This document shows, piece after piece, positions 2,081-18,659 of a DNA stretch of 64,000 nt. The DNA lies in NCBI GenBank assembly GCA_963717465.1, contig OY970340.1, positions 672,001-736,000 on the forward strand. The letters run 5' to 3'. Below the pieces are notes generated by a model that saw only the letters and a program-made list of their open reading frames with translations, searched no databases and was not told the origin of the DNA. The stretch's first letter is position 1; every line of letters begins with the position of its first letter. The stretch is from Candidatus Bathyarchaeota archaeon. GTDB taxonomy: Archaea > Thermoproteota > Bathyarchaeia > Bathyarchaeales > Bathycorpusculaceae. The position numbers and the translations under genes were made by a program.

Positions 2081-3382
2081 TCATTTTTTGAAAATGTGAA
2101 TTTCTCTTCCAATTTTATGCCGCTCATCTACTTCAACCAATGAGTCAAGTTGAAGCAAATCTTTCCTGACCTTTTGCGCTTTCTGAAAATGATTCTTTTT
2201 TAAATGGTGGAATTCTTTGGAAGCCAACTTTTTCAGCTTTTTCGCCTATTGGCATGGTCGTTGGGCGTCCAGAACGAGTTATTATGTAAGGAGTAACTAA
2301 CACTAATCGGCCGATTATTTTGAGTACTTTGTAAGCTTCTTCCACGAAACTGAAGAATAATGGTTTAAGTTTTTCAATAATCTTTGCAGCAGTAGGGTCC
2401 TGTTGGTACTTGGCGTAGAGCTGGACCTAAATCTGGTTCAGAGACTATGCAGTCAACGGTTTCTTGACCGATTTTACTTGCTAACTTTTCAACATTGCCT
2501 TGTACAACACGGAACTCAGCATTCTCAAGGTTGTATTCCTTTTCAAGCCACAATAGATTATCAATCGTTGCTTTTACGCACCATGGGTTGATGTCCATGC
2601 CTAACAACTTTAGCTTTGGATAATAGCGCTTCTTGAAGAACCGTGCCAACACCACAGAAAGGATCAAGCAGAGTTTTGCCAGGTGCGCATGAAGATAAGT
2701 TAACCATTATTCGAGCTATTCTCGGAGGCATGCCAAAAATTTTTCTTTGGCTCGGTTTGTAAATATCCCGTTTTTGAAATTCAAAAGGGTTATGAACCCC
2801 AGCGGTTGATGCAATCCAAGTTTCCTCTTTACCTATGCAGAACAGTATTTCAGCCTTTTTCTCAACAAGATTTTTCTTGAGAACTTCAATATGGCTTAGC
2901 TGGGCGGTTCTTCGATCCTTGGAGAAACCCATAAATTTCGAGTTTCTTCCAAAATCTGCTAACTCATCCTTAATGGCGCTTCCAATAAACCTTTGAATAT
3001 TTCCAGATAAAGGTTGTAACTGTTTTTCAGGGCAATAGACGCTGACGCCGAAAAATACTTTACCCACTGACAAGTCTTTCATATCTTCACTTAAACCACT
3101 CGATTTAAGTGAATCCTTAATTTGCGCTTTTGCGTCCTTGTTTTTTTCAATAAATGCTTTTTTCACAATGTCTGTTGGAAGGCTTGCAAGTACAGTTCCA
3201 CTTTTTATTGTTCCGCCTAAGCTGGAAATTTGAGCACTTACATTTTGCTCTTCATTAATTATGAAGTAGTCCTTTGAGAAAAAAGGCACTTCGAACTTTA
3301 CTTTATTATTTTCTAAGAAGAAAATTAGCTCCGCTAACGAGAGATTCCAGTTTTTTCCTGAAATAAACACTTCTTTGAACAT
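2081..3382 (-). CDS. Trm11/TrmG10-like tRNA (guanine-N2) methyltransferase, split by frameshifts
   Basis: Consecutive ORF pieces give MFKEVFISGKN...MPPRIARIMVNL...LLDPFCGVGT...GMDINP...CIVSEPDLGP, ending HKIGREIHIFKK-stop at 2081. Confidence 0.75.
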
Positions 3383-3507
3383 TCTCAAAAAATACAAGTT
3401 AATTAAATATATAAGCAAATGATAATTAATTAGCAAGAAAATAGCCTATAGAGACTGCAAATCGTTTAAATAGCCTGCTGATTTTATGCTACAAAAGGGA
3501 TTGTATT

Positions 3508-7541: not shown

Positions 7542-8208
7542 ACCTGGAATTATTTCTTTCCAAAATAAAACCGCAACCCACTCCTAAAGTAAGTCTTGAG
7601 CAATATACAATTTCAGAATCAATTGCAGCAACCTTACTCCACATTGCCACCTACACTAACAATGACATTGTTGGAAAGAATATCATAGATTTAGGCTGTG
7701 GCACTGGCAGATTAGCTTTAGGTGCAGCGTACATGGGCGCAAAATCAGTTATCAGGAATTGATATCGACAAAAATACCCTGAGAATAGCCGCTGAAAACG
7801 CACGAGAACTGAGAGTATTTGCCAACACTCAATTTGTTGTCGGCGACATTTCCACAGTTAAGGGCGAGCTTCGATACGGCTCTGCAGAATCCACCGTTCG
7901 GAGTGCAAACCCGCGGTGCTGATCGGGCGTTCTTGGTGAAAGCCTTAGAGATTGGCAAATCAATCTATTCTCTGCATAATCATCCGCAGGTAGATGAACA
8001 ATTAATTAAGCGATTAAAATCTTCAAAGGGATTGCTAGAGGTTCCTCCTTCTGCTTTTTTAAAAAACTTGATTGAGAAACATAACGGTATTGTTAATGTG
8101 GTTTACGCCTTGCTTATGACTATTCCACGCATGTTCGATTTTCACACTAAGGCAAAGCATGATTTTGTTGTTGATTTATACATTATAACCCGAAAAGACA
8201 ATCGATGA
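7502..8208 (+). CDS. METTL5-family SAM-dependent methyltransferase (frameshifted)
   Basis: PKVSLEQYT, DLGCGTGRL, GIDID, QNPPFG...ADRAFL, IYSLH, IPRMFDFH. Confidence 0.88.
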
Positions 8209-8325
8209 ACATCAAATATAAGAGGAAGGGTAATGCAAAAGGTTTATTGAGAAGCATGGAAACTAAGCATAATGCATTTAGCTAATGCGGTTATTCAGTT
8301 TATTTAAGGTTAAAAGGGAAATTGT

Positions 8326-8907
8326 ATGAGTGTTAAAGCCCCTGAACAAAAAAGTGGTCATTTAGTGCTGCCTGGAGAACGCTTAGGCGTCATCGAAGAG
8401 TTTATTCCAGATTCTGGAACCTACGTTAAAGACGGCGTTATTTATTCAAAAATAGTGGGTCGTTCACTAATGGATTTACTGAACAAACGTGTTTCCGTTT
8501 ATCCATTAATTAATGGTGCAGTAACGCCCAAAGTATCAAGCATAGTTATTGGGCAAGTTGGCAATTCACAATCAGACAATGTCTTAGTCAGAATTTCCAA
8601 AGTTGGAAAAAAGAAGATCTTAGGAAATTTCTCAGGAATCCTCCACATTTCTGATGCTCAAGACCGATATGTTAACTCGATGAGTGATGTATGCAAAACA
8701 GGAGACATAATAAGAGCTAAAGTCATAAGCGAAAAAAATCAAATATACCACTTATCCACTGCAGATAAGGGTTTGGGTGTTCTATATGCAGCTTGTTCAC
8801 GTTGCGGCGGTTTACTTGAGCAGAAAAATCATGACTTACAATGCCCTAAATGCAAAAACATAGAAAATCGTAAGATAGCTCCAGATTATGGAGTCGAAGT
8901 CCTTTAA
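8326..8907 (+). CDS. csl4: Exosome RNA-binding subunit Csl4
   Basis: VLPGERLGVIEEF N-terminus, S1 domain GILHISD...GDIIRAKV, Zn ribbon CSRCG...CPKC...ENRKIA. Confidence 0.95.
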   Translation: MSVKAPEQKSGHLVLPGERLGVIEEFIPDSGTYVKDGVIYSKIVGRSLMDLLNKRVSVYPLINGAVTPKVSSIVIGQVGNSQSDNVLVRISKVGKKKILGNFSGILHISDAQDRYVNSMSDVCKTGDIIRAKVISEKNQIYHLSTADKGLGVLYAACSRCGGLLEQKNHDLQCPKCKNIENRKIAPDYGVEVL

Positions 8908-10447: not shown

Positions 10448-11420
10448 TTAAAAAACAAGGTCCGCCATGTCCACACTGTTTTCGTAAATCTGCTTTAAGA
10501 AAGACAGAGCTGCTAGGATTTGCGGCATTATTTCGACAGGATTAGCCTTTGCAATCTTTTCAGTGTTCGTGTATAAGGCTTCAATTTTTCCCCTCATTGA
10601 ACGCACGTTTTCAGCTAAAGCAATATCCTTATTCACGAATGATTTCAATGCCTGTTCATGCGCATCGCTGCAAACTGCCTGAAAATCAAACAGCAACTTT
10701 TGCAACTCAACTGAAGGCTTAACACCGTTAAGGGATAAAGTTTTGGCTGCAACTTGAACACAGGCATCCCCTATGGCTTCAATTATGCTTGCAGCTAAAC
10801 GATAATCTAAGCAGTCTATCGCACTAATTCCAAGTTTCTCGCCAAGCCGAGAATTTTGAATTACAGTTCGCAAAATTCTAACCAAGAGGAAATAGAGTCG
10901 GTTACTCTCATTGTCCCTAGCAATCACGCTTTTAGCCAGGTTCATGTCTGAATTGATGAAAGAAGAAGCTACGTCGCGAGCCATGCCGGCAACAATGGCA
11001 TAGTTTCTTCTTAGGATTTTTTCTGGTGCAAAACCCGAAGGTTCAAGGAGACACTGCAAAACAATTTGAGAATAGTTTTCTTCAACAATCTCTAAGACCA
11101 ATCAAAGAGCTAACAGTTTGTTTAACAAGGTCTCTAATGTCAAAATCTATGCGGTCTTTAGCTTCAATGCGAATGACGTCAAAACCAAGCAGATAACTCC
11201 CGATTACTTCACGACGCAGATAAGACCCAACATTCAAGGTAACTTCTTTTTGTTGTGGCTCCGCATTATATTTTGGGTCCACAATAAGTTTTCCGTCTTC
11301 AGTTAAGTCCAAATTAACCAAAGTTCCCTTCTTAAGACCATTTTGTGTAGCCCAAGACCTTGGCACACAAACAAAAAAAGTACCAGTTGGAGTGCGTTGA
11401 ACTTTGCGTAAATCACCCAA
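10448..11420 (-). CDS. AbrB-domain PhoU-family phosphate uptake regulator (frameshift ~11090)
   Basis: RKVQRT..GTFFVCVPRSW AbrB-type N-terminus; SYLLGFDVIRI; ARDNESNRLYFLLVR; EAIGD PhoU motif. Confidence 0.85.
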
Positions 11421-11690: not shown

Positions 11691-13266
11691 ATGCTATGAT
11701 GGAAGCAAGAAAAACTTAAAAAGGCAATCGAAGCAACCATTGCAGCAGGTTACCAATTAAACAGCGAAGCTTTTGAGTTTTTAAAAACAAACCCTGCAGC
11801 TGAAGATCCTGTTGAAGTAATGAATTTAGCGATTCAAAGAATGGAACAATTGGAGAATAAGCCTTTATTCATAGGCAAGGAACTTATCTAGAAACAATTT
11901 TACAACCATCAAGCTCCAGAGAAGAAACAATCTCTTAAAGTCAAACTCAACCAAGCCCAAGCATGGAACCTCAAAATCAGACTCACTGTAGAAAAGGAAG
12001 ACTTTTTTTACCCTTATGCTAAGTACATCCCAGCTCAAATTAACATTATTAGATGATTCAACAGGGAAGCTGAGTTCTAATGGAACGCTAGAGGAGTACC
12101 TTCGATACTTTCAAGATAGGTTTAAACGGATTGAACGTCTGCTGAGGCAAAGAATGGATGTTAAAGCTGCAACATCAATATTGGAAGCATTGAAATCTCA
12201 GCCTAAAACAAAGCTAAAAATTATTTGCATGCTAACTGAGAAACGCGAATCAAAAAATCAAATATTCTTATCAGTTGAAGATTTACATGGAAGCACCACT
12301 GTTCTAATCCCGCAAAAAGCGCCTGAAGAAGTGCATAAAAAGGCGGCTCAACTTACTGCCTGACCAGATAGTTTGCTTAGCCGTGATAAAAACAAGAACC
12401 AATCTCTTTCTAGCTGAAGACATAATTTTTCCAGAAGTAGGCAAGAAACCTCAACAGAGAGCTGATGAACCTGTTTATGCAGTATTAACTTCAGATATTC
12501 ATATTGGAAGCAACAAATTCCAAAGAGAAGCATTCAACCGCTTTATTCAATGGCTTAACGGCAAATACGGAAACCAAGAAATGAAAGAAATCGCTGGCCG
12601 CGTAAAATACCTTCTCATCGCAGGCGACATTGTTGATGGCATCGGAGTTTACCCAAACCAAGTAAAAGAACTTTTGATAAGAGATGTTCATAAGCAATAC
12701 AGGTTCGCAGCAAAACTTATGCAGCAAATTCCAGATTACATTCAAATCATAGTTTCACCGGGTAACCATGATGCATCAAGAAAATCCCTTCCGCAACCAG
12801 CTATACCACAAGAATACCTAAAAACGATAAATGAAAAAGGCAACATTTACTCCGTCGGTAGCCCCTGTGTGCTCACTATACATGGTGTTGAAGTCTTAAT
12901 GTATCATGGCCGCAGTTTAGATGACCTAATCGGCACAGTTCCAGGGATAGATCATGATCACCCTGAAAAAGCAATGAAACTGCTTCTTGCAAGCACGTCA
13001 TTTAGCACCAGTGTACGGTGGCAAAACAATGTTGTCGCCAGAAAACCGAGATTACTTAGTAATTGATAGAGTACCTGATATTTTCCATGCTGGCCACATT
13101 CACGTCTTAGGGCTACTGCAATTACCGAGGAGTTTTAGTCATAAATTCTGGCGGTTGGCAAGAGCAAACTGACTATATGCAGAAGTTAGGTTTGGTTCCA
13201 ACGCCTGGGAAAGTGCCAGTAGTTAACTTGCAAACATTAGAAACATCAGTATTATCATTTAATTAG
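11691..13266 (+). CDS. polB: DNA polymerase D small subunit DP1 (several frameshifts; start approximate)
   Basis: YFQDRFKRI, SVEDLHG, SDIHIGS, AGDIVDGIGVYP, PGNHDA, YHGRSLDD, RHLAPVYGG, PDIFHAGHIH, NSGGWQEQT...PTPGKVPVVNL. Confidence 0.92.
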
Positions 13267-13305: not shown

Positions 13306-14538
13306 TTAAGTGTTCTTGGAATTAACAGTAGTTGGAGTATATTCTAGCAAATGGCTAAACCTGCTGTCACTTCCAAATACGTCTTTGATCAGAGAACGCG
13401 ATATTTCCAGCCTTATTTTTTTAGTTCGTCCATAGCGACCCATGCTCACTACTTTTGCATTCAAAAGACCCATCGAATCAAGTTCATTAATCAAAGTGCC
13501 TAATCGGCGTTGAGTTAAAAGCCCCGCGCCTTGTTCTCCGCAGAGTTCATTGTAAATATCGTATATTTCGCCAGTATTAGCGCTTGATTTGTTCAGATGA
13601 TAAACGCTTAAAAGCACCAATTTTGAGTGTAAAGTTAAGTTTTTGAGCGCTTCGACAACACGGTTATGTTCTATATGTCTTTCAGCTTGCCTTACATGTT
13701 CATCTGTAATAATTTTGTCTTTTTGTCGTTCTGCAACTTCGCCAGCCACACGCAGCAGATCCAGGGCGCGGCGTGCATCACCATGTTCAGCAGCGGCTAA
13801 AGCTGAACAGATACTTAATGCAGCTTCAGATAAAACGCCTTCTTGAAACGAAAGCTTTGATCTTTCCAAGAATATATTGCGAAGTTCACTTGCATCATAG
13901 GGTCTGAAGACCAGTTCTTCCTCGCTAAGAGAACTGAAAACTCGTGGGTCAAGAAATTCTTTCAACCGTAAATCGTTGGATATTCCAATTATAGATACCT
14001 TACTCTTGCTAAGCGTTTCGTTTATTCTTGTTAATTCATACATGAAGCCGTCTCCATGCTCTTTAATCAAAGCGTCAACTTCGTCCAAGACTATTATGAA
14101 AATTATTCTTGAAGCGTCTAATCCTGATCGGAACCTATCGAAGACTTCGCCGACAGATAATCCAGTAAAAGGAATAGTTAAGCCAACGCTTTGACTTAGG
14201 CTTGCAAAAACTCGATATTCTGAGCCTACCATCCTGCAATTAATATAGCAAAACTTTACAAAAGATCCATACTCTTTAGATTTAGATTCTAAATGACTTA
14301 AGACATACTTGGTAACTGCAGTCTTTCCAGTTCCAGTTTTCCCATAAATAAAGATGTTTGAGCAACGTGCATTTTTTAGAACAGGAGCAACAGTTTGACC
14401 TAAAAGACGGATTTGTTCTTCTCTATGAGGCAATTTTTCAGGTAGGTAATCATGCCTTAGAACTTCGCGGTCCTTAAAGAGACAAACGCCATTTACAAAG
14501 TTGTCGAATACATCATTTAAGATACTTTGATTACCCAT
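13306..14538 (-). CDS. cdc6: Orc1/Cdc6 replication initiator
   Basis: LPHREEQI, Walker A GKTGTGKT, Walker B LDEVD, GDARRALDLLR, C-terminal wHTH SMGRYGRT. Confidence 0.97.
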   Translation of the reverse strand: MGNQSILNDVFDNFVNGVCLFKDREVLRHDYLPEKLPHREEQIRLLGQTVAPVLKNARCSNIFIYGKTGTGKTAVTKYVLSHLESKSKEYGSFVKFCYINCRMVGSEYRVFASLSQSVGLTIPFTGLSVGEVFDRFRSGLDASRIIFIIVLDEVDALIKEHGDGFMYELTRINETLSKSKVSIIGISNDLRLKEFLDPRVFSSLSEEELVFRPYDASELRNIFLERSKLSFQEGVLSEAALSICSALAAAEHGDARRALDLLRVAGEVAERQKDKIITDEHVRQAERHIEHNRVVEALKNLTLHSKLVLLSVYHLNKSSANTGEIYDIYNELCGEQGAGLLTQRRLGTLINELDSMGLLNAKVVSMGRYGRTKKIRLEISRSLIKDVFGSDSRFSHLLEYTPTTVNSKNT

Positions 14539-14685
14539 TAGCCAGTCCCTTCCACTTTAGAGGGAACATCGTTATTCAAAATGGAACAGATAAAGCCTAT
14601 AGTACAAAAAACTGGTTTGAAGCACAATAATCCTAAAAATTAATGCAAGCAAGGGATGATAAGCAGGCAAACAGAGACTTACACG

Positions 14686-15169
14686 CACCCCAAGGTTTCT
14701 ACTGGAAAAATTTGTTAAAAAAAATTTAATTAAGAAAAACTTAGATATAATATATATAAATAATAATATACTCTAATAGTTAAAGAGAATATTTGTTTAT
14801 TAATTATTATTGTCAAGTATTTTAGACAAGTAGTCTGCAATTCTTTTTTCGAGAGTTTTTTAGCCGTTTTCATTGAAAAATATTTCGAGAGGAAATGTAG
14901 GGGTGTCGGCAAGTCCATGTGGTTGTCCATATAATTCCTCTTTTCCCTTTTTAAAAAAGATTTTAAACTTCAATTTTCTTGCCATGACTCTATATTGTAA
15001 AAAATATTATTCATTGTTAAATCTTAAGTCTCTTCTTTTTCCTTCACAGACTTGTGAACCAGTTGTGAAATTGATCATAAAATATCTCTTATTCAGCCTT
15101 TATTTTGTCATTGTATTCTATTTATGTCCTTTTTACTGTGAAGATGCCACCCCTGCATTTCTACTGGAG
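14686..15169. other. oriC: Replication origin oriC (three ORB boxes plus AT-rich unwinding element)
   Basis: 22-bp ORBs: 14686-14707(-) TTCCAGTAGAAACCTTGGGGTG; 14884-14905(+) TTCGAGAGGAAATGTAGGGGTG; 15148-15169(-) CTCCAGTAGAAATGCAGGGGTG; very AT-rich tract ~14710-14830; directly upstream of cdc6. Confidence 0.9.
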
Positions 15170-15345
15170 AAACAAGATCAGAATGAAGAAAAGAATTTTA
15201 AATCAATCAGAGATTGTGTGACCCTTGTAATTCTTAAAAAAATGAATTTTAAGCCTATTTTTAAAATTTAGTCATTATATCAGTCGTTTCACAAACTCCG
15301 ATTTCACCATAACAATTATAAGGTGTAAAGCTGTAAAGTTGTGAA
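15043..15345. repeat. Cluster of TTCAC/GTGAA motifs, including inverted repeat TTCACA-gact-TGTGAA
   Basis: Copies at 15043, 15054, 15065, 15138, 15288, 15303, 15341, plus TGTAAAG twice at ~15324-15338. Confidence 0.55.
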
Positions 15346-15367
15346 CGTCTCAAGGTGCACCGCAAGC

Positions 15368-15796
15368 ATGCCCGCTAGAAAAATGCGTGTGGAGTTATTC
15401 GATAACGAGGGAAATCGATACACTATAGCCTTTGAGGGACAAATCACTCGAGATAAAGCTTTGCGGCTCCTTGATCTTGTTGAATTGCTTGGTGGAGTGC
15501 CTGAGGGTCAACAGCCTTCTGGATTAGGAAATCTTCCAGGTGAGGCTTCTTCAAGATTTGAAAAAATGCGCTCAGTGATTCAGAAGAATTTTCCTCTTGT
15601 CTGGTTTTCATCCAAGGAAATTCAGTCGGTCTATGAGCAGGAACTTAAAGAACCCATAAGTTTGAGCACCGTTTCAACTTATTTAGCTAGAATGGCAGGC
15701 AAGGGCTACCTCCTTAGAACTGGCGGTGCCAACAATTTGAAGTACAAGATTTCGTCAGTGACTCCGCAAGCAGTTGTAAAACAAACAATGAAATGA
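15368..15796 (+). CDS. Origin-adjacent hypothetical protein with C-terminal winged HTH
   Basis: ATG at 15368; C-terminal FSSKEIQSVYEQELKEPISLSTVSTYLARMAGKGYLLRTG...KYKI has the helix-turn-helix-wing pattern. Confidence 0.75.
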   Translation: MPARKMRVELFDNEGNRYTIAFEGQITRDKALRLLDLVELLGGVPEGQQPSGLGNLPGEASSRFEKMRSVIQKNFPLVWFSSKEIQSVYEQELKEPISLSTVSTYLARMAGKGYLLRTGGANNLKYKISSVTPQAVVKQTMK

Positions 15797-15843
15797 TAAC
15801 TATTTTCCAAGTTGATTAATCTTTAGAAGATTATGAACTTCTG

Positions 15844-16558
15844 TTAAGCTGGTGGGTTCTCTGTTTTGTTTAAGAATTTTTCCATTTCTTTTTTAACGCT
15901 GTATCGGAATGGGATTTTGCCGGTTTCTCTTTCGAGGTATCCTCCTTCATACAGCTTCTTCATTAGTCTGGCTGTGTGCTCTCTGCTGAGTTTAACTCTG
16001 TCTTTAATTTCAGGCGCTGTTTTTGGCCCTTCAGAAGATAGCATTTCCAAGCACTGAAATTTCTGTATCAGTCAACGCAGCCATTGCTTTATCACGCCTA
16101 ATTGGTATAACTGGTTCGGGCTTGTTTTCAGTTGGGGATGCAAACTTTTGAATCTGTTCTTCGAAACCCGAAATTCTTGTCTTAAAACTTTCCTGAGAGT
16201 TTTCAATATCCTTAATTTTCAGTTCAAAACCATTTAGACTTGCCAAAACTTTTTCATTGTCCTCTATTGCCTTGGCGAATTGGTTTTCTATCGGGTTTAG
16301 CTTCTTTTCTAAAGCTTCTGCTTTTTTGAATCCTGCGTCAGCTTTGGCTGAATTTCCTTCAACTTTGTAAGCAATCAATTCTAATCTGCTTGCTTCGCGC
16401 TTGAGTTCTCTGTTAAAGCTAAGAACAATGTCCTGAACCGAGTTCTTTGCCTTCTCGTACTCTTTTTGTGCATTCTTAATTTGCCTAAGAAAGATAATAC
16501 ACGAGATAACTATGGCTGCAAGCAGTACAGTTAATAAAACTAAACTTACGTCAGTCAT
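15844..16558 (-). CDS. Membrane-anchored coiled-coil protein with C-terminal winged HTH (1-bp frameshift ~16048)
   Basis: N-terminal TM VSLVLLTVLLAAIVISCIIFL; long heptad-rich helix; removing one G joins it to LTDTEISVLEMLSSEGPKTAPEIKDRVKLSREHTARLMKKLYEGGYLERE (wHTH). Confidence 0.78.
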
Positions 16559-16573
16559 GTTTGTTCATACTCC

Positions 16574-16857
16574 GTGATTCGTGCGTGATTCAAACAGTGT
16601 TGCATCACAAATCACAGTTACCATGAAACTTTTAAGTTTTATGGTGATATCTCGCTTTATCTGTCCTCCACATCACAGGTCACAAAATAAATCACAGCTT
16701 CTATCTTTACATCTGTGATCAGTGTTAACGTTTTATATCTTAAATTTTAGCTTATTTTCAGCAATAAAGCTCTATTTGAGCTTTTAACTATGAACCTTAA
16801 ATTCATATGTGTAAAGTTTTCAAAACATAGCATCCTTATGTGATTTGTGACATCACA
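16574..16857. repeat. Array of RTCAC/GTGAY motifs with GTGATATCAC-like palindromes
   Basis: Half-sites at 16574, 16585, 16604, 16611, 16644, 16672, 16679, 16691, 16715, 16840, 16847, 16852; GTGATATCTC at 16644; TGTGACATCACA at 16846. Confidence 0.7.
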
Positions 16858-17332
16858 AAGGCTCTCCTGATGGACTAGAAAGCCGTTTTAAGCTCGTTTC
16901 AAGCTCTTCCCGGATGATTTCGACCAGTTTTAAGCGTTCTTTTAGCTCATCTTCCTTGTCTGGCACTTCCTGGTGTGCCTCCACATATTCCTTCAATTTA
17001 TTGCTTATTTCGAGATACGGGTCAAGAGTAGTCGTTTCAAACACTCCTAAGTAGCCTAAAAGCAGTACAGTGTATATGGATTTTATCACGTTTTCTTTAG
17101 ACTGTTTTAATGTCCTATTAAAGGAACCGCGACTTATTTTAGCCTTAGTTAGCCTTAAACAGGCTTTTTCATCGTACTTTAGCTGTTTGCCTGAAATATT
17201 CTCGGCTAAAATGTCTATTAACAGTGTTTCTAGCTGGATTTTTGTTAATTGGCTATTTTTAGCCAGTATTTTTACAATAGGGTCGTTTAATGCCCCGTTT
17301 AACCATGCTTGAACGCCTTCTTTTAGCTTCAA
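16853..17332 (-). CDS. Hypothetical protein with sigma70-region-4/HTH_10-like DNA-binding motif
   Basis: SQLTKIQLETLL...YDEKA.LR...KISRGSFNRTLKQSKENV followed by a C-terminal amphipathic helix. Confidence 0.65.
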   Translation of the reverse strand: MKLKEGVQAWLNGALNDPIVKILAKNSQLTKIQLETLLIDILAENISGKQLKYDEKACLRLTKAKISRGSFNRTLKQSKENVIKSIYTVLLLGYLGVFETTTLDPYLEISNKLKEYVEAHQEVPDKEDELKERLKLVEIIREELETSLKRLSSPSGEPL

Positions 17333-17702
17333 ACTGCTCTACTTCTCCGTATATTGAAATGGATACGCTTTTGTATACTATGCCTGCTTTTTAAAATTTT
17401 CCTAACAGAAAGCTAACCCTGTTTTAGTTCTAAAATGGCATTAATTGAGGCTTAAAATAAAAATTAACTACTTTTTGAGGCATTATTAGAGTTATACAGT
17501 CAATATGTTTGTGTTTGGCTTAAATATGCTTGTACTGCCCTTCTCTGACCCAATAAAATGGTTGAGATTAACTAGATGTTGGCTGAGTGTTTGCCTGAAT
17601 TATAGGTTCATTTTATCGATTGCATGTTAAGTTAATATAATTCACACAATTTACCTCTAAATTAAAAAGACTTTTCTGACGCTCCATTCTTTTTCTATGC
17701 GA

Positions 17703-17809
17703 GTGATATCATCATGAATTGTCTTCGTGATATCACCTTGTCACAAATAGTCACGTTGGATGCTCCATGGAATCTTTGATATCACAGCGTGATGTGACGC
17801 GTCTGTGAT
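17703..17809. repeat. Second array of RTCAC/GTGAY motifs with GTGATATCAC palindromes
   Basis: Nine half-sites in 107 bp; perfect GTGATATCAC at 17727-17736; one-mismatch copies at 17703 and 17776. Confidence 0.72.
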
Positions 17810-17824
17810 TTGCGAAATGATGGA

Positions 17825-18659
17825 TTAAAAAAGTTCAGCTTGCTTCATTAACTCTAAGAAAAGCTCTGGTCTGAGGTCTCTTAAGGTTGGGATGAATGTT
17901 TCAGCCCCAATTAGGTCTTTGAAGTCAACTTCACAGGTGACGAAATCCTCTTCATCATACTTTGCCTTGGCAATTACTTCTCCAGTTGGGCTTACAAGTC
18001 TGCTTCCACCCCAGAACTGCAAGCCATCCTCAACTCCGGCAAGGTTAACGTAAGCGAGAAAAGCAGTGTTTTCCAGAGCTCTTGCGCTCGTCAGGATTTC
18101 AAAGTATCCTCTGCGGACGGCAGGTGATGCTGAGATACAGACTATTAATTGGGCCCCCTTTAGTCGTGTAAGGCGAATTACCTCAGGGAAGAAAATGTCA
18201 TAGCAAATGCATAATCCTATTTTGCCTATTGCAGTGTCGAATGAGACGGTTTGGTATCCTGGGCGAAAATATCTTTTCTCTTCAAAAACGCTATGGGTTG
18301 GCAAGTAGAATTTACGGTATTTCCCTATCAAACCTTTAGGACCCACGAAAACTGCCGTGTTAAATATTGTTGCTTTGCTCTTTTCGCTAAGTTCAGGCAT
18401 TCCAAAAATGATATGCCTTCCAGTTTTTTTCGCTAACGCTGCAACCTTTTCGGTTGTCGGTCCAGGAATTGTTTCAGCTAATTCGTAGAGTTGATCCATC
18501 ACTACGTAGCCAGTCAAGGAAAGCTCAGGAAAAATCACTAAATCAGCCGCTTGCTCCTTTGCCTTAATTGTTACTTCTTCTATTTTGCGAAAATTCTGTT
18601 CCTTATCTTCGCGTCGACTGCTTATTTGGGCAAGGGCTAATTTTAATTTTATCTTTCAA
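17825..18659 (-). CDS. Carbon-nitrogen hydrolase (nitrilase family); N-terminal frameshift
   Basis: KLALAQI N-terminus upstream of the listed ORF; triad motifs FPELSLTGY (E), YRKFYLP (K), ICYDIFFPE (C). Confidence 0.9.

Follow-up and report, generated by a model that had tools for sequence, protein, structure and literature searches.

Reviews describe little of archaeal chromosome segregation beyond the SegAB system of Sulfolobus (PMC7617429, PMC12858884). The closest described systems in domain make-up to the protein reported here are RicO of Staphylococcus aureus (bioRxiv 10.64898/2026.03.06.710092), described as a DNA-binding domain, a coiled coil and a membrane anchor that act at specific ricS sites spread over the origin region and beside SMC, and RocS of Streptococcus pneumoniae (PMC13042908), described as a helix-turn-helix, a coiled coil and a membrane anchor, with a short hydrophobic-basic targeting peptide and ParB as its partner. 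Sites with a double use as promoter operators and centromeres are known from omega/parS of pSM19035 (PMC2441792), where heptads with an ATCAC core form direct and inverted arrays, and the same double use is suspected for SegB sites (PMC5120986). Both AspA-ParBA of pNOB8 (PMC5120986) and SegAB of Sulfolobus (PMC12858884) are described as archaeal site-specific binders with a site upstream of their own gene, AspA being a winged-helix (wH) protein. Transmembrane transcription regulators, defined broadly, combine one transmembrane (TM) helix with a DNA-binding domain (PMC10269533).

Here we describe a bathyarchaeal gene, found in a window of 64,000 nucleotides (the whole stretch of DNA that was analysed), that encodes a protein with an N-terminal TM helix, a coiled coil and a C-terminal wH domain (TM-wH). 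The gene lies beside a likely replication origin and two dense arrays of the site GTGAY. We found no description of this family in the mostly open literature covered.

A single protein behind a split reading frame

The features of the gene are as follows.

15844..16558, minus strand: TM-wH gene, 237 aa (TM helix, coiled coil, winged helix), split in the assembly
16047..16050, minus strand: surplus base, either a G of GG or a T of TT, a likely assembly error
16484..16543, minus strand: membrane helix, residues ~6-25, predicted N-out/C-in from hydropathy and flank charge
15872..16070, minus strand: winged-helix domain, residues 164-229, MarR-like by model, profile and Foldseek

As the initial annotation had reported, the gene appears as two minus-strand open reading frames of 175 aa (16031-16558) and 68 aa (15844-16050). 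The single excess base that it proposed also stands, as does the restored length of 237 aa; its choice of a G at about 16048 is unproven, the extra base being either one T of the TT at 16049-16050 or one G of the GG at 16047-16048, and removal of either yields L-E-M and 237 aa. In a DNA alignment the window is one base longer at 16047-16050 than all four correctly oriented orthologues (the row of L004, on the wrong strand and uninformative, was left out), and two contigs, both from relatives (~85% alike, one DNA run), cross the break with one letter fewer. The homologues are undivided and about 220-260 aa long, and 118 of the 119 top ones have the N-terminal part and the wH motif in one chain; the remaining record is labelled as partial. 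All 11 genus- and order-level loci and all 20 class-level loci likewise carry one reading frame.

The source genome (G000) is one contig of 3.05 Mb. Since frameshifts are present in 4 of 28 compared genes of this assembly, including three in DP1, the essential small subunit of PolD, the break in the TM-wH gene is likely an assembly error, and in itself an ordinary one. The ScpB and HypF genes are likewise split. Genes frameshifted only in the source assembly are a PhoU-like gene, DP1 and one more (window 10448-11420, 11703-13263 and 2163-3421). We regard it as very improbable that the source organism carries a true pseudogene or two true genes: a second genome (G199) also shows the gene split and some lineages dispense with it, but each half matches intact homologues at 74-88% identity, both GTGAY arrays are intact and DP1 has suffered the same fate.

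The domain layout first proposed was largely borne out. The TM helix has a hydropathy (KD19) of 3.2 from residue 6. Under the positive-inside rule, the excess of K/R in the C-flank over the N-flank in 40 of 40 TM-bearing orthologues (51 orthologues examined; mean 3.8 versus 0.5) predicts an N-out/C-in orientation and therefore a cytoplasmic wH. The coiled coil is visible as a hydrophobic period of 3.5 residues and as long helices, residues 2-86 and 101-140, modelled with low confidence (mean pLDDT 66) in the 237-aa protein; the same model shows a loose linker between the long helices and the wH. The linker described as Pro-rich holds three Pro in eight residues, so that the prolines are there and "rich" is modestly earned. 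Across orthologues the spacer ranges from ~68 to 205 residues and is therefore not a fixed ruler. The homodimer prediction scored 0.18 against a mark of 0.42 and is counted neither for nor against a dimer.

The C-terminal wH resembles MarR/TrmB/Lrs14-type regulators, with PF01047 (MarR-type wH) scoring 27.8 bits over a cut-off of 24.6 and MarR wH domains as the best Foldseek matches. These structural matches are limited to the wH, and the whole-chain TM-score against MarR structures is at most 0.30. All 25 diverse orthologues that were aligned share the recognition-helix pattern E-H..R..K without change. Canonical MarR proteins are soluble, single-domain and ~140-150 aa long, and repress until a ligand releases them, whereas the protein here shares their wH profile within a different layout (237 aa, TM helix and coiled coil). 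Regulators of the ToxR/CadC type have an N-terminal cytoplasmic wH and a C-terminal extracytoplasmic sensor; here the wH is C-terminal and, with the TM helix starting at residue 6, nothing lies outside, in agreement with the sensor-less architecture claimed at the outset. Pfam and NCBIfam matches to CENP-F and EzrA were below cut-off and were discarded as coiled-coil noise.

Gene order at a likely replication origin

The neighbouring features are as follows.

13306..14538, minus strand: cdc6/orc1 initiator gene
14686..14710, minus strand: ORB-like box 1, upstream of cdc6
15148..15172, minus strand: ORB-like box 2, upstream of cdc6
15043..15345, no strand: GTGAA cluster on the origin side, which stays where the TM-wH gene is missing
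15341..15796, plus strand: wH151, a winged-helix gene in its own right, linked to the origin; GTGAA is likely its motif
16853..17332, minus strand: o159, a conserved all-helical neighbour between the two arrays, with no family known

The gene order is thus cdc6, two ORB-like boxes (called with the ORB consensus), wH151, the TM-wH gene and o159, with the TM-wH gene ~0.7 kb from the ORB boxes. The annotated position next to oriC was upheld, in that the gene adjoins the boxes and cdc6 at what is, by sequence, a likely origin. GC skew did not locate the origin of the source genome, Rfam returned no matches in 14400-18000, and a sigma-70 promoter scan, a model unsuited to archaea, was at chance level.

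This position is conserved. An origin-type cdc6 lies within 4.2 kb of the TM-wH gene in 26 of 31 Bathyarchaeia loci, and the same gene order is found in all eight Nitrosopumilaceae-type loci (cdc6 is visible in five; the other three end at a contig edge). Several TM-less forms still adjoin ORB boxes where cdc6 has moved off. In the family f24, all four genomes tested are without origin-type cdc6 and wH151, yet the TM-wH gene and its arrays are kept (genomes G163, G154, G053 and G189; loci L055, L058, L068, L069 and L073). In f24 the best cdc6 match has ~30% identity and the DP1-DP2 locus showed no ORB box; this family of Bathyarchaeia may have lost its canonical origin.

The GTGAA motif is distinct from GTGAY; it persists without the TM-wH gene and tracks wH151, and is therefore likely the motif of wH151. 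The conserved GTGAA cluster of wH151 overlaps the origin and is replaced by GTTAA in Nitrosopumilaceae-type loci, and wH151 is a candidate origin accessory factor. After wH151, five loci carry a gene of 330-340 aa without a Pfam match together with a gene for a HerA/CedD-like ATPase (L011 8979-11514; also L023, L054, L062 and L063), both missing from the source genome. The o159 model is a confident all-helical fold (pLDDT 89), with no PDB structural match at E <= 0.001 and no Pfam family. In Nitrosopumilaceae-type loci (L080 ~8100-8360 and others), GTGAT sites lie within the 3' end of o159, where they encode a tail with many D-V-I and S-V-I. No ParA-type ATPase was seen in the cassette of the window, and the nearest AAA_31 matches in the source genome are ~90 kb off; a pair of neighbouring ParA/MinD-like genes (G000:C1 597432-598682) is separated from the origin by ~90 kb. 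ScpB was considered as a discriminator and rejected, as it is found both in genomes that carry the TM-wH gene and in others that do not.

Dense, phased GTGAY arrays accompany the gene

Two arrays flank o159 in the window.

16574..16857, no strand: GTGAY array 1, 12 sites, the densest in the genome, covering the likely promoter of the TM-wH gene
17703..17809, no strand: GTGAY array 2, 9 sites in 107 bp, the second densest, just past the nitrilase stop

Array 1 surrounds the start of the TM-wH gene and its TATA-like box (16628-16640), as an operator would. Both arrays lie within 1.3 kb, 1.4-2.6 kb from the ORB boxes. Counted per 400 bp they hold 12 and 10 sites and rank first and second in the source genome, where the next densest stretch has 8 and the mean is 0.92. 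The 3.05-Mb genome has no other site cluster that would suggest a regulon, and GTGAY sites are not enriched farther from the origin. This genome-wide ranking covers the source genome, searches for triple or palindromic patterns in other genomes being too noisy.

At least one array is present in all 31 class loci and at least two in 22, array 2 usually beginning ~450-700 bp upstream of o159. In 36 arrays with 459 sites in total, the spacings between direct repeats have their maxima at 7, 10-11, 21-22, 32-33 and 42-43 bp; repeats at 7 bp and at multiples of 10.5 bp are helically phased. The palindrome GTGAYRTCAC occurs 44 times among the same sites. By comparison, the count per 400 bp does not exceed 3-5 sites in eight origin loci from genomes without a detected TM-wH gene. 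These loci represent about six lineages, some of their genomes being fragmented; all keep cdc6, ORBs and wH151, five keep o159, and in four wH151 and o159 abut at the expected position of the TM-wH gene. L105 and L106, whose contigs end at that position, were left out of this set (L105 has arrays of 7 and 11). In six genomes where the TM-wH gene and cdc6 are apart, the arrays track the TM-wH gene.

Arrays are also found inside coding genes. In three loci of one genus an array lies within hypF, 1.3-1.6 kb from the start of the TM-wH gene, beyond what synonymous recoding produces (0 of 500). Another lies inside nadE in three of four f24 loci (1 of 300 recodings or less) and in none of 14 nadE genes of other families, and a third inside an aminotransferase gene in two loci (0 of 500 recodings). 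In the recoding test, enrichment was not clear for nadE of L073 or for hypF of L072 and L073. The arrays in coding genes probably represent three or four events, not eight.

Presence and absence ruled out both o159 and wH151 as the GTGAY binder, the arrays persisting without o159 in L086, L087 and L094. Because the arrays are genome-unique and phased, co-occur with the TM-wH gene and outlast the loss of o159, it is likely, on sequence grounds, that the wH of the TM-wH protein binds them. There are departures from the pattern. In f41 (L219-L225 and L091) the recognition helix is altered and 1-3 sites form no array, with cassette and ORBs intact; f49 has the TM helix and just 5-6 sites, and L169 is an intact TM-bearing locus with 3 sites. 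A motif that might take the place of GTGAY was looked for in f41, f47 and f49, without success.

Family spread and changes of the membrane anchor

The family forms a compact set, with 711 clusters at E <= 1e-10 rising to 895 at 1e-3; its closest homologues are Bathyarchaeia by their NCBI names, and it is single-copy in Bathyarchaeia and Nitrososphaeria. We found the gene in 153 of 201 class genomes, a few of which show two full-length matches. Among 251 phylum genomes 147 have it, always as a single match except in the source genome. It was not found in 48 of the class genomes, some of them 98-100% complete, and phylum families scoring zero include f45 (0 of 20) and f39 (0 of 11).

TM-less relatives bear the names Methanomethylicia, Culexmicrobium and Methanosuratincola in public records. 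The clade that includes Methanomethylicia has neither TM helix nor N-terminal peptide (0 of 17), and many of its members keep arrays. A short hydrophobic-basic N-terminal peptide is present in TM-less f41 (8 of 8), f34 g63/g74 (6 of 11) and f47 (1 of 2), against a background of 28 in 2380 ORFs for a pattern that was tuned on these same sequences after the fact. At least two origins of the peptide-bearing TM-less state are forced by a 90-column tree. The peptide is possibly a substitute membrane anchor in these three lineages. Of 35 TM-less loci, 28 have an array of at least seven sites, as do 50 of the 56 loci with a TM helix (some counted twice; 92 of 98 loci used, L134 and five edge-cut loci being dropped, as was L127, a 100-bp stub). 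As most TM-less loci have them, the arrays are independent of the TM helix.

Possible roles of the TM-wH protein

The initial annotation read the architecture as a physical DNA-to-membrane tether. This reading gains from genome-unique arrays that track the gene and from the possible substitute anchor, and loses from the anchorless clade and the gene losses; it is still a proposal. In the form that we favour, a RocS/RicO-like origin-to-membrane tether that also represses its own gene, it seems to us evenly poised between right and wrong. The N-terminus would sit in the membrane and the cytoplasmic wH on the two arrays; the coiled coil would dimerise, and dimers would bind the palindrome and the phased half-sites cooperatively. 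Many anchored copies could then form a point-centromere-like complex that holds the origin region at the membrane, and the same binding would repress the gene's own promoter. Sister origins would be separated by cell growth, SMC-ScpAB or a further partner. The reasons for this reading are the top-ranking arrays with no regulon-like cluster elsewhere, the conserved position by the origin cdc6 and ORB boxes, the presence of arrays with the gene, their absence from the eight gene-less loci and their writing into coding genes, the phased and palindromic sites, the uniform topology with no extracellular domain, and the peptide of TM-less lineages together with the three parts shared with RocS and RicO in reverse order. 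Against it count the place of array 1 on the gene's own promoter, the anchorless forms with arrays independent of the TM helix, the absence of the gene from several lineages, the weak or missing arrays of f41, f49 and L169, a cassette without ParA, sites that are not spread as ricS is, arrays that follow the gene and not cdc6 where the two are apart, and f24, which keeps gene and arrays without the origin cdc6. A broader proposal, somewhat less probable than the tether itself, is an ancient point centromere in Bathyarchaeia and ammonia-oxidising archaea that works without ParA and in which a self-regulated wH protein would coat and anchor phased GTGAY arrays, its TM helix having been swapped for a targeting peptide at least twice.

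The main rival is a membrane-bound transcription repressor that would act on very few nearby genes, its own and o159, and that might be freed by proteolysis or by the state of the membrane. On this view the arrays would serve as operators or for looping, and the linkage to the origin would reflect inherited gene order. Array 1 lies on the gene's promoter and array 2 usually upstream of o159, soluble orthologues are known, the gene outlasts the loss of the origin cdc6, and the protein fits the definition of transmembrane transcription regulators given in PMC10269533. We nevertheless hold such a repressor to be rather unlikely: 10-20 phased sites are many for an operator, the arrays in hypF, nadE and the aminotransferase gene lie apart from the gene's own promoter, the genome has no further target cluster, there is no sensor domain, and some holders of the gene are without o159. 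More doubtful still is a coupling to the cell cycle, whereby arrays by the origin would restrain or time initiation through membrane sequestration, or bar the site from the division ring, with no part in segregation. The tight ORB linkage even where cdc6 has moved would agree with it, and archaeal origin accessory proteins are described (UBP/ucm, PMC12141716), but the origin-side GTGAA cluster is independent of the TM-wH gene and tracks wH151, and in f24 the gene is still there although the origin cdc6 is gone.

Should the tether reading be right, this would be the first archaeal origin-to-membrane tether. The module offers a named protein, a predicted site and natural deletion controls, and its hosts are cultured or have complete genomes (Nitrosopumilus, and Methanosuratincola for the anchorless form). 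With protein, site, controls and hosts at hand, the question of an archaeal origin at the membrane becomes directly testable, for example in cultured Nitrosopumilus.

Comparison with known systems

The TM-wH protein falls within the broad definition of transmembrane transcription regulators (PMC10269533) and differs from those described there in having no extracytoplasmic sensor, a long coiled-coil spacer, a single copy by the origin and no distant target clusters. AspA-ParBA and SegAB, as described (PMC5120986, PMC12858884), are soluble and need a ParA-type ATPase, whereas the cassette here does not form a ParABS system. The omega protein (PMC2441792) is a soluble ribbon-helix-helix protein that acts with a ParA ATPase on unspaced heptads, in contrast to the wH candidate and the spaced, phased sites of a cassette without ParA.

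All three parts of RocS and RicO (DNA-binding domain, coiled coil and anchor) are predicted in the TM-wH protein, in reverse order. Pfam, NCBIfam and PDB gave no RocS- or RicO-related match and we saw no homology to RicO, so that the likeness rests on domain make-up. A tether of the RocS/RicO kind is expected to leave origins misplaced and cells anucleate when it is lost. RicO has its specific sites near the origin, as the predicted sites are here, and between RicO and the TM-wH protein it is RicO for which function has been shown (bioRxiv 10.64898/2026.03.06.710092); the anchor here is a TM helix, and the sites are two arrays within 1.3 kb and not dispersed as ricS is. RocS partners ParB in the published description (PMC13042908), and its targeting peptide resembles the N-termini of TM-less orthologues. 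With membership in either family not claimed, the TM-wH protein would, by analogy, work like RicO or RocS.
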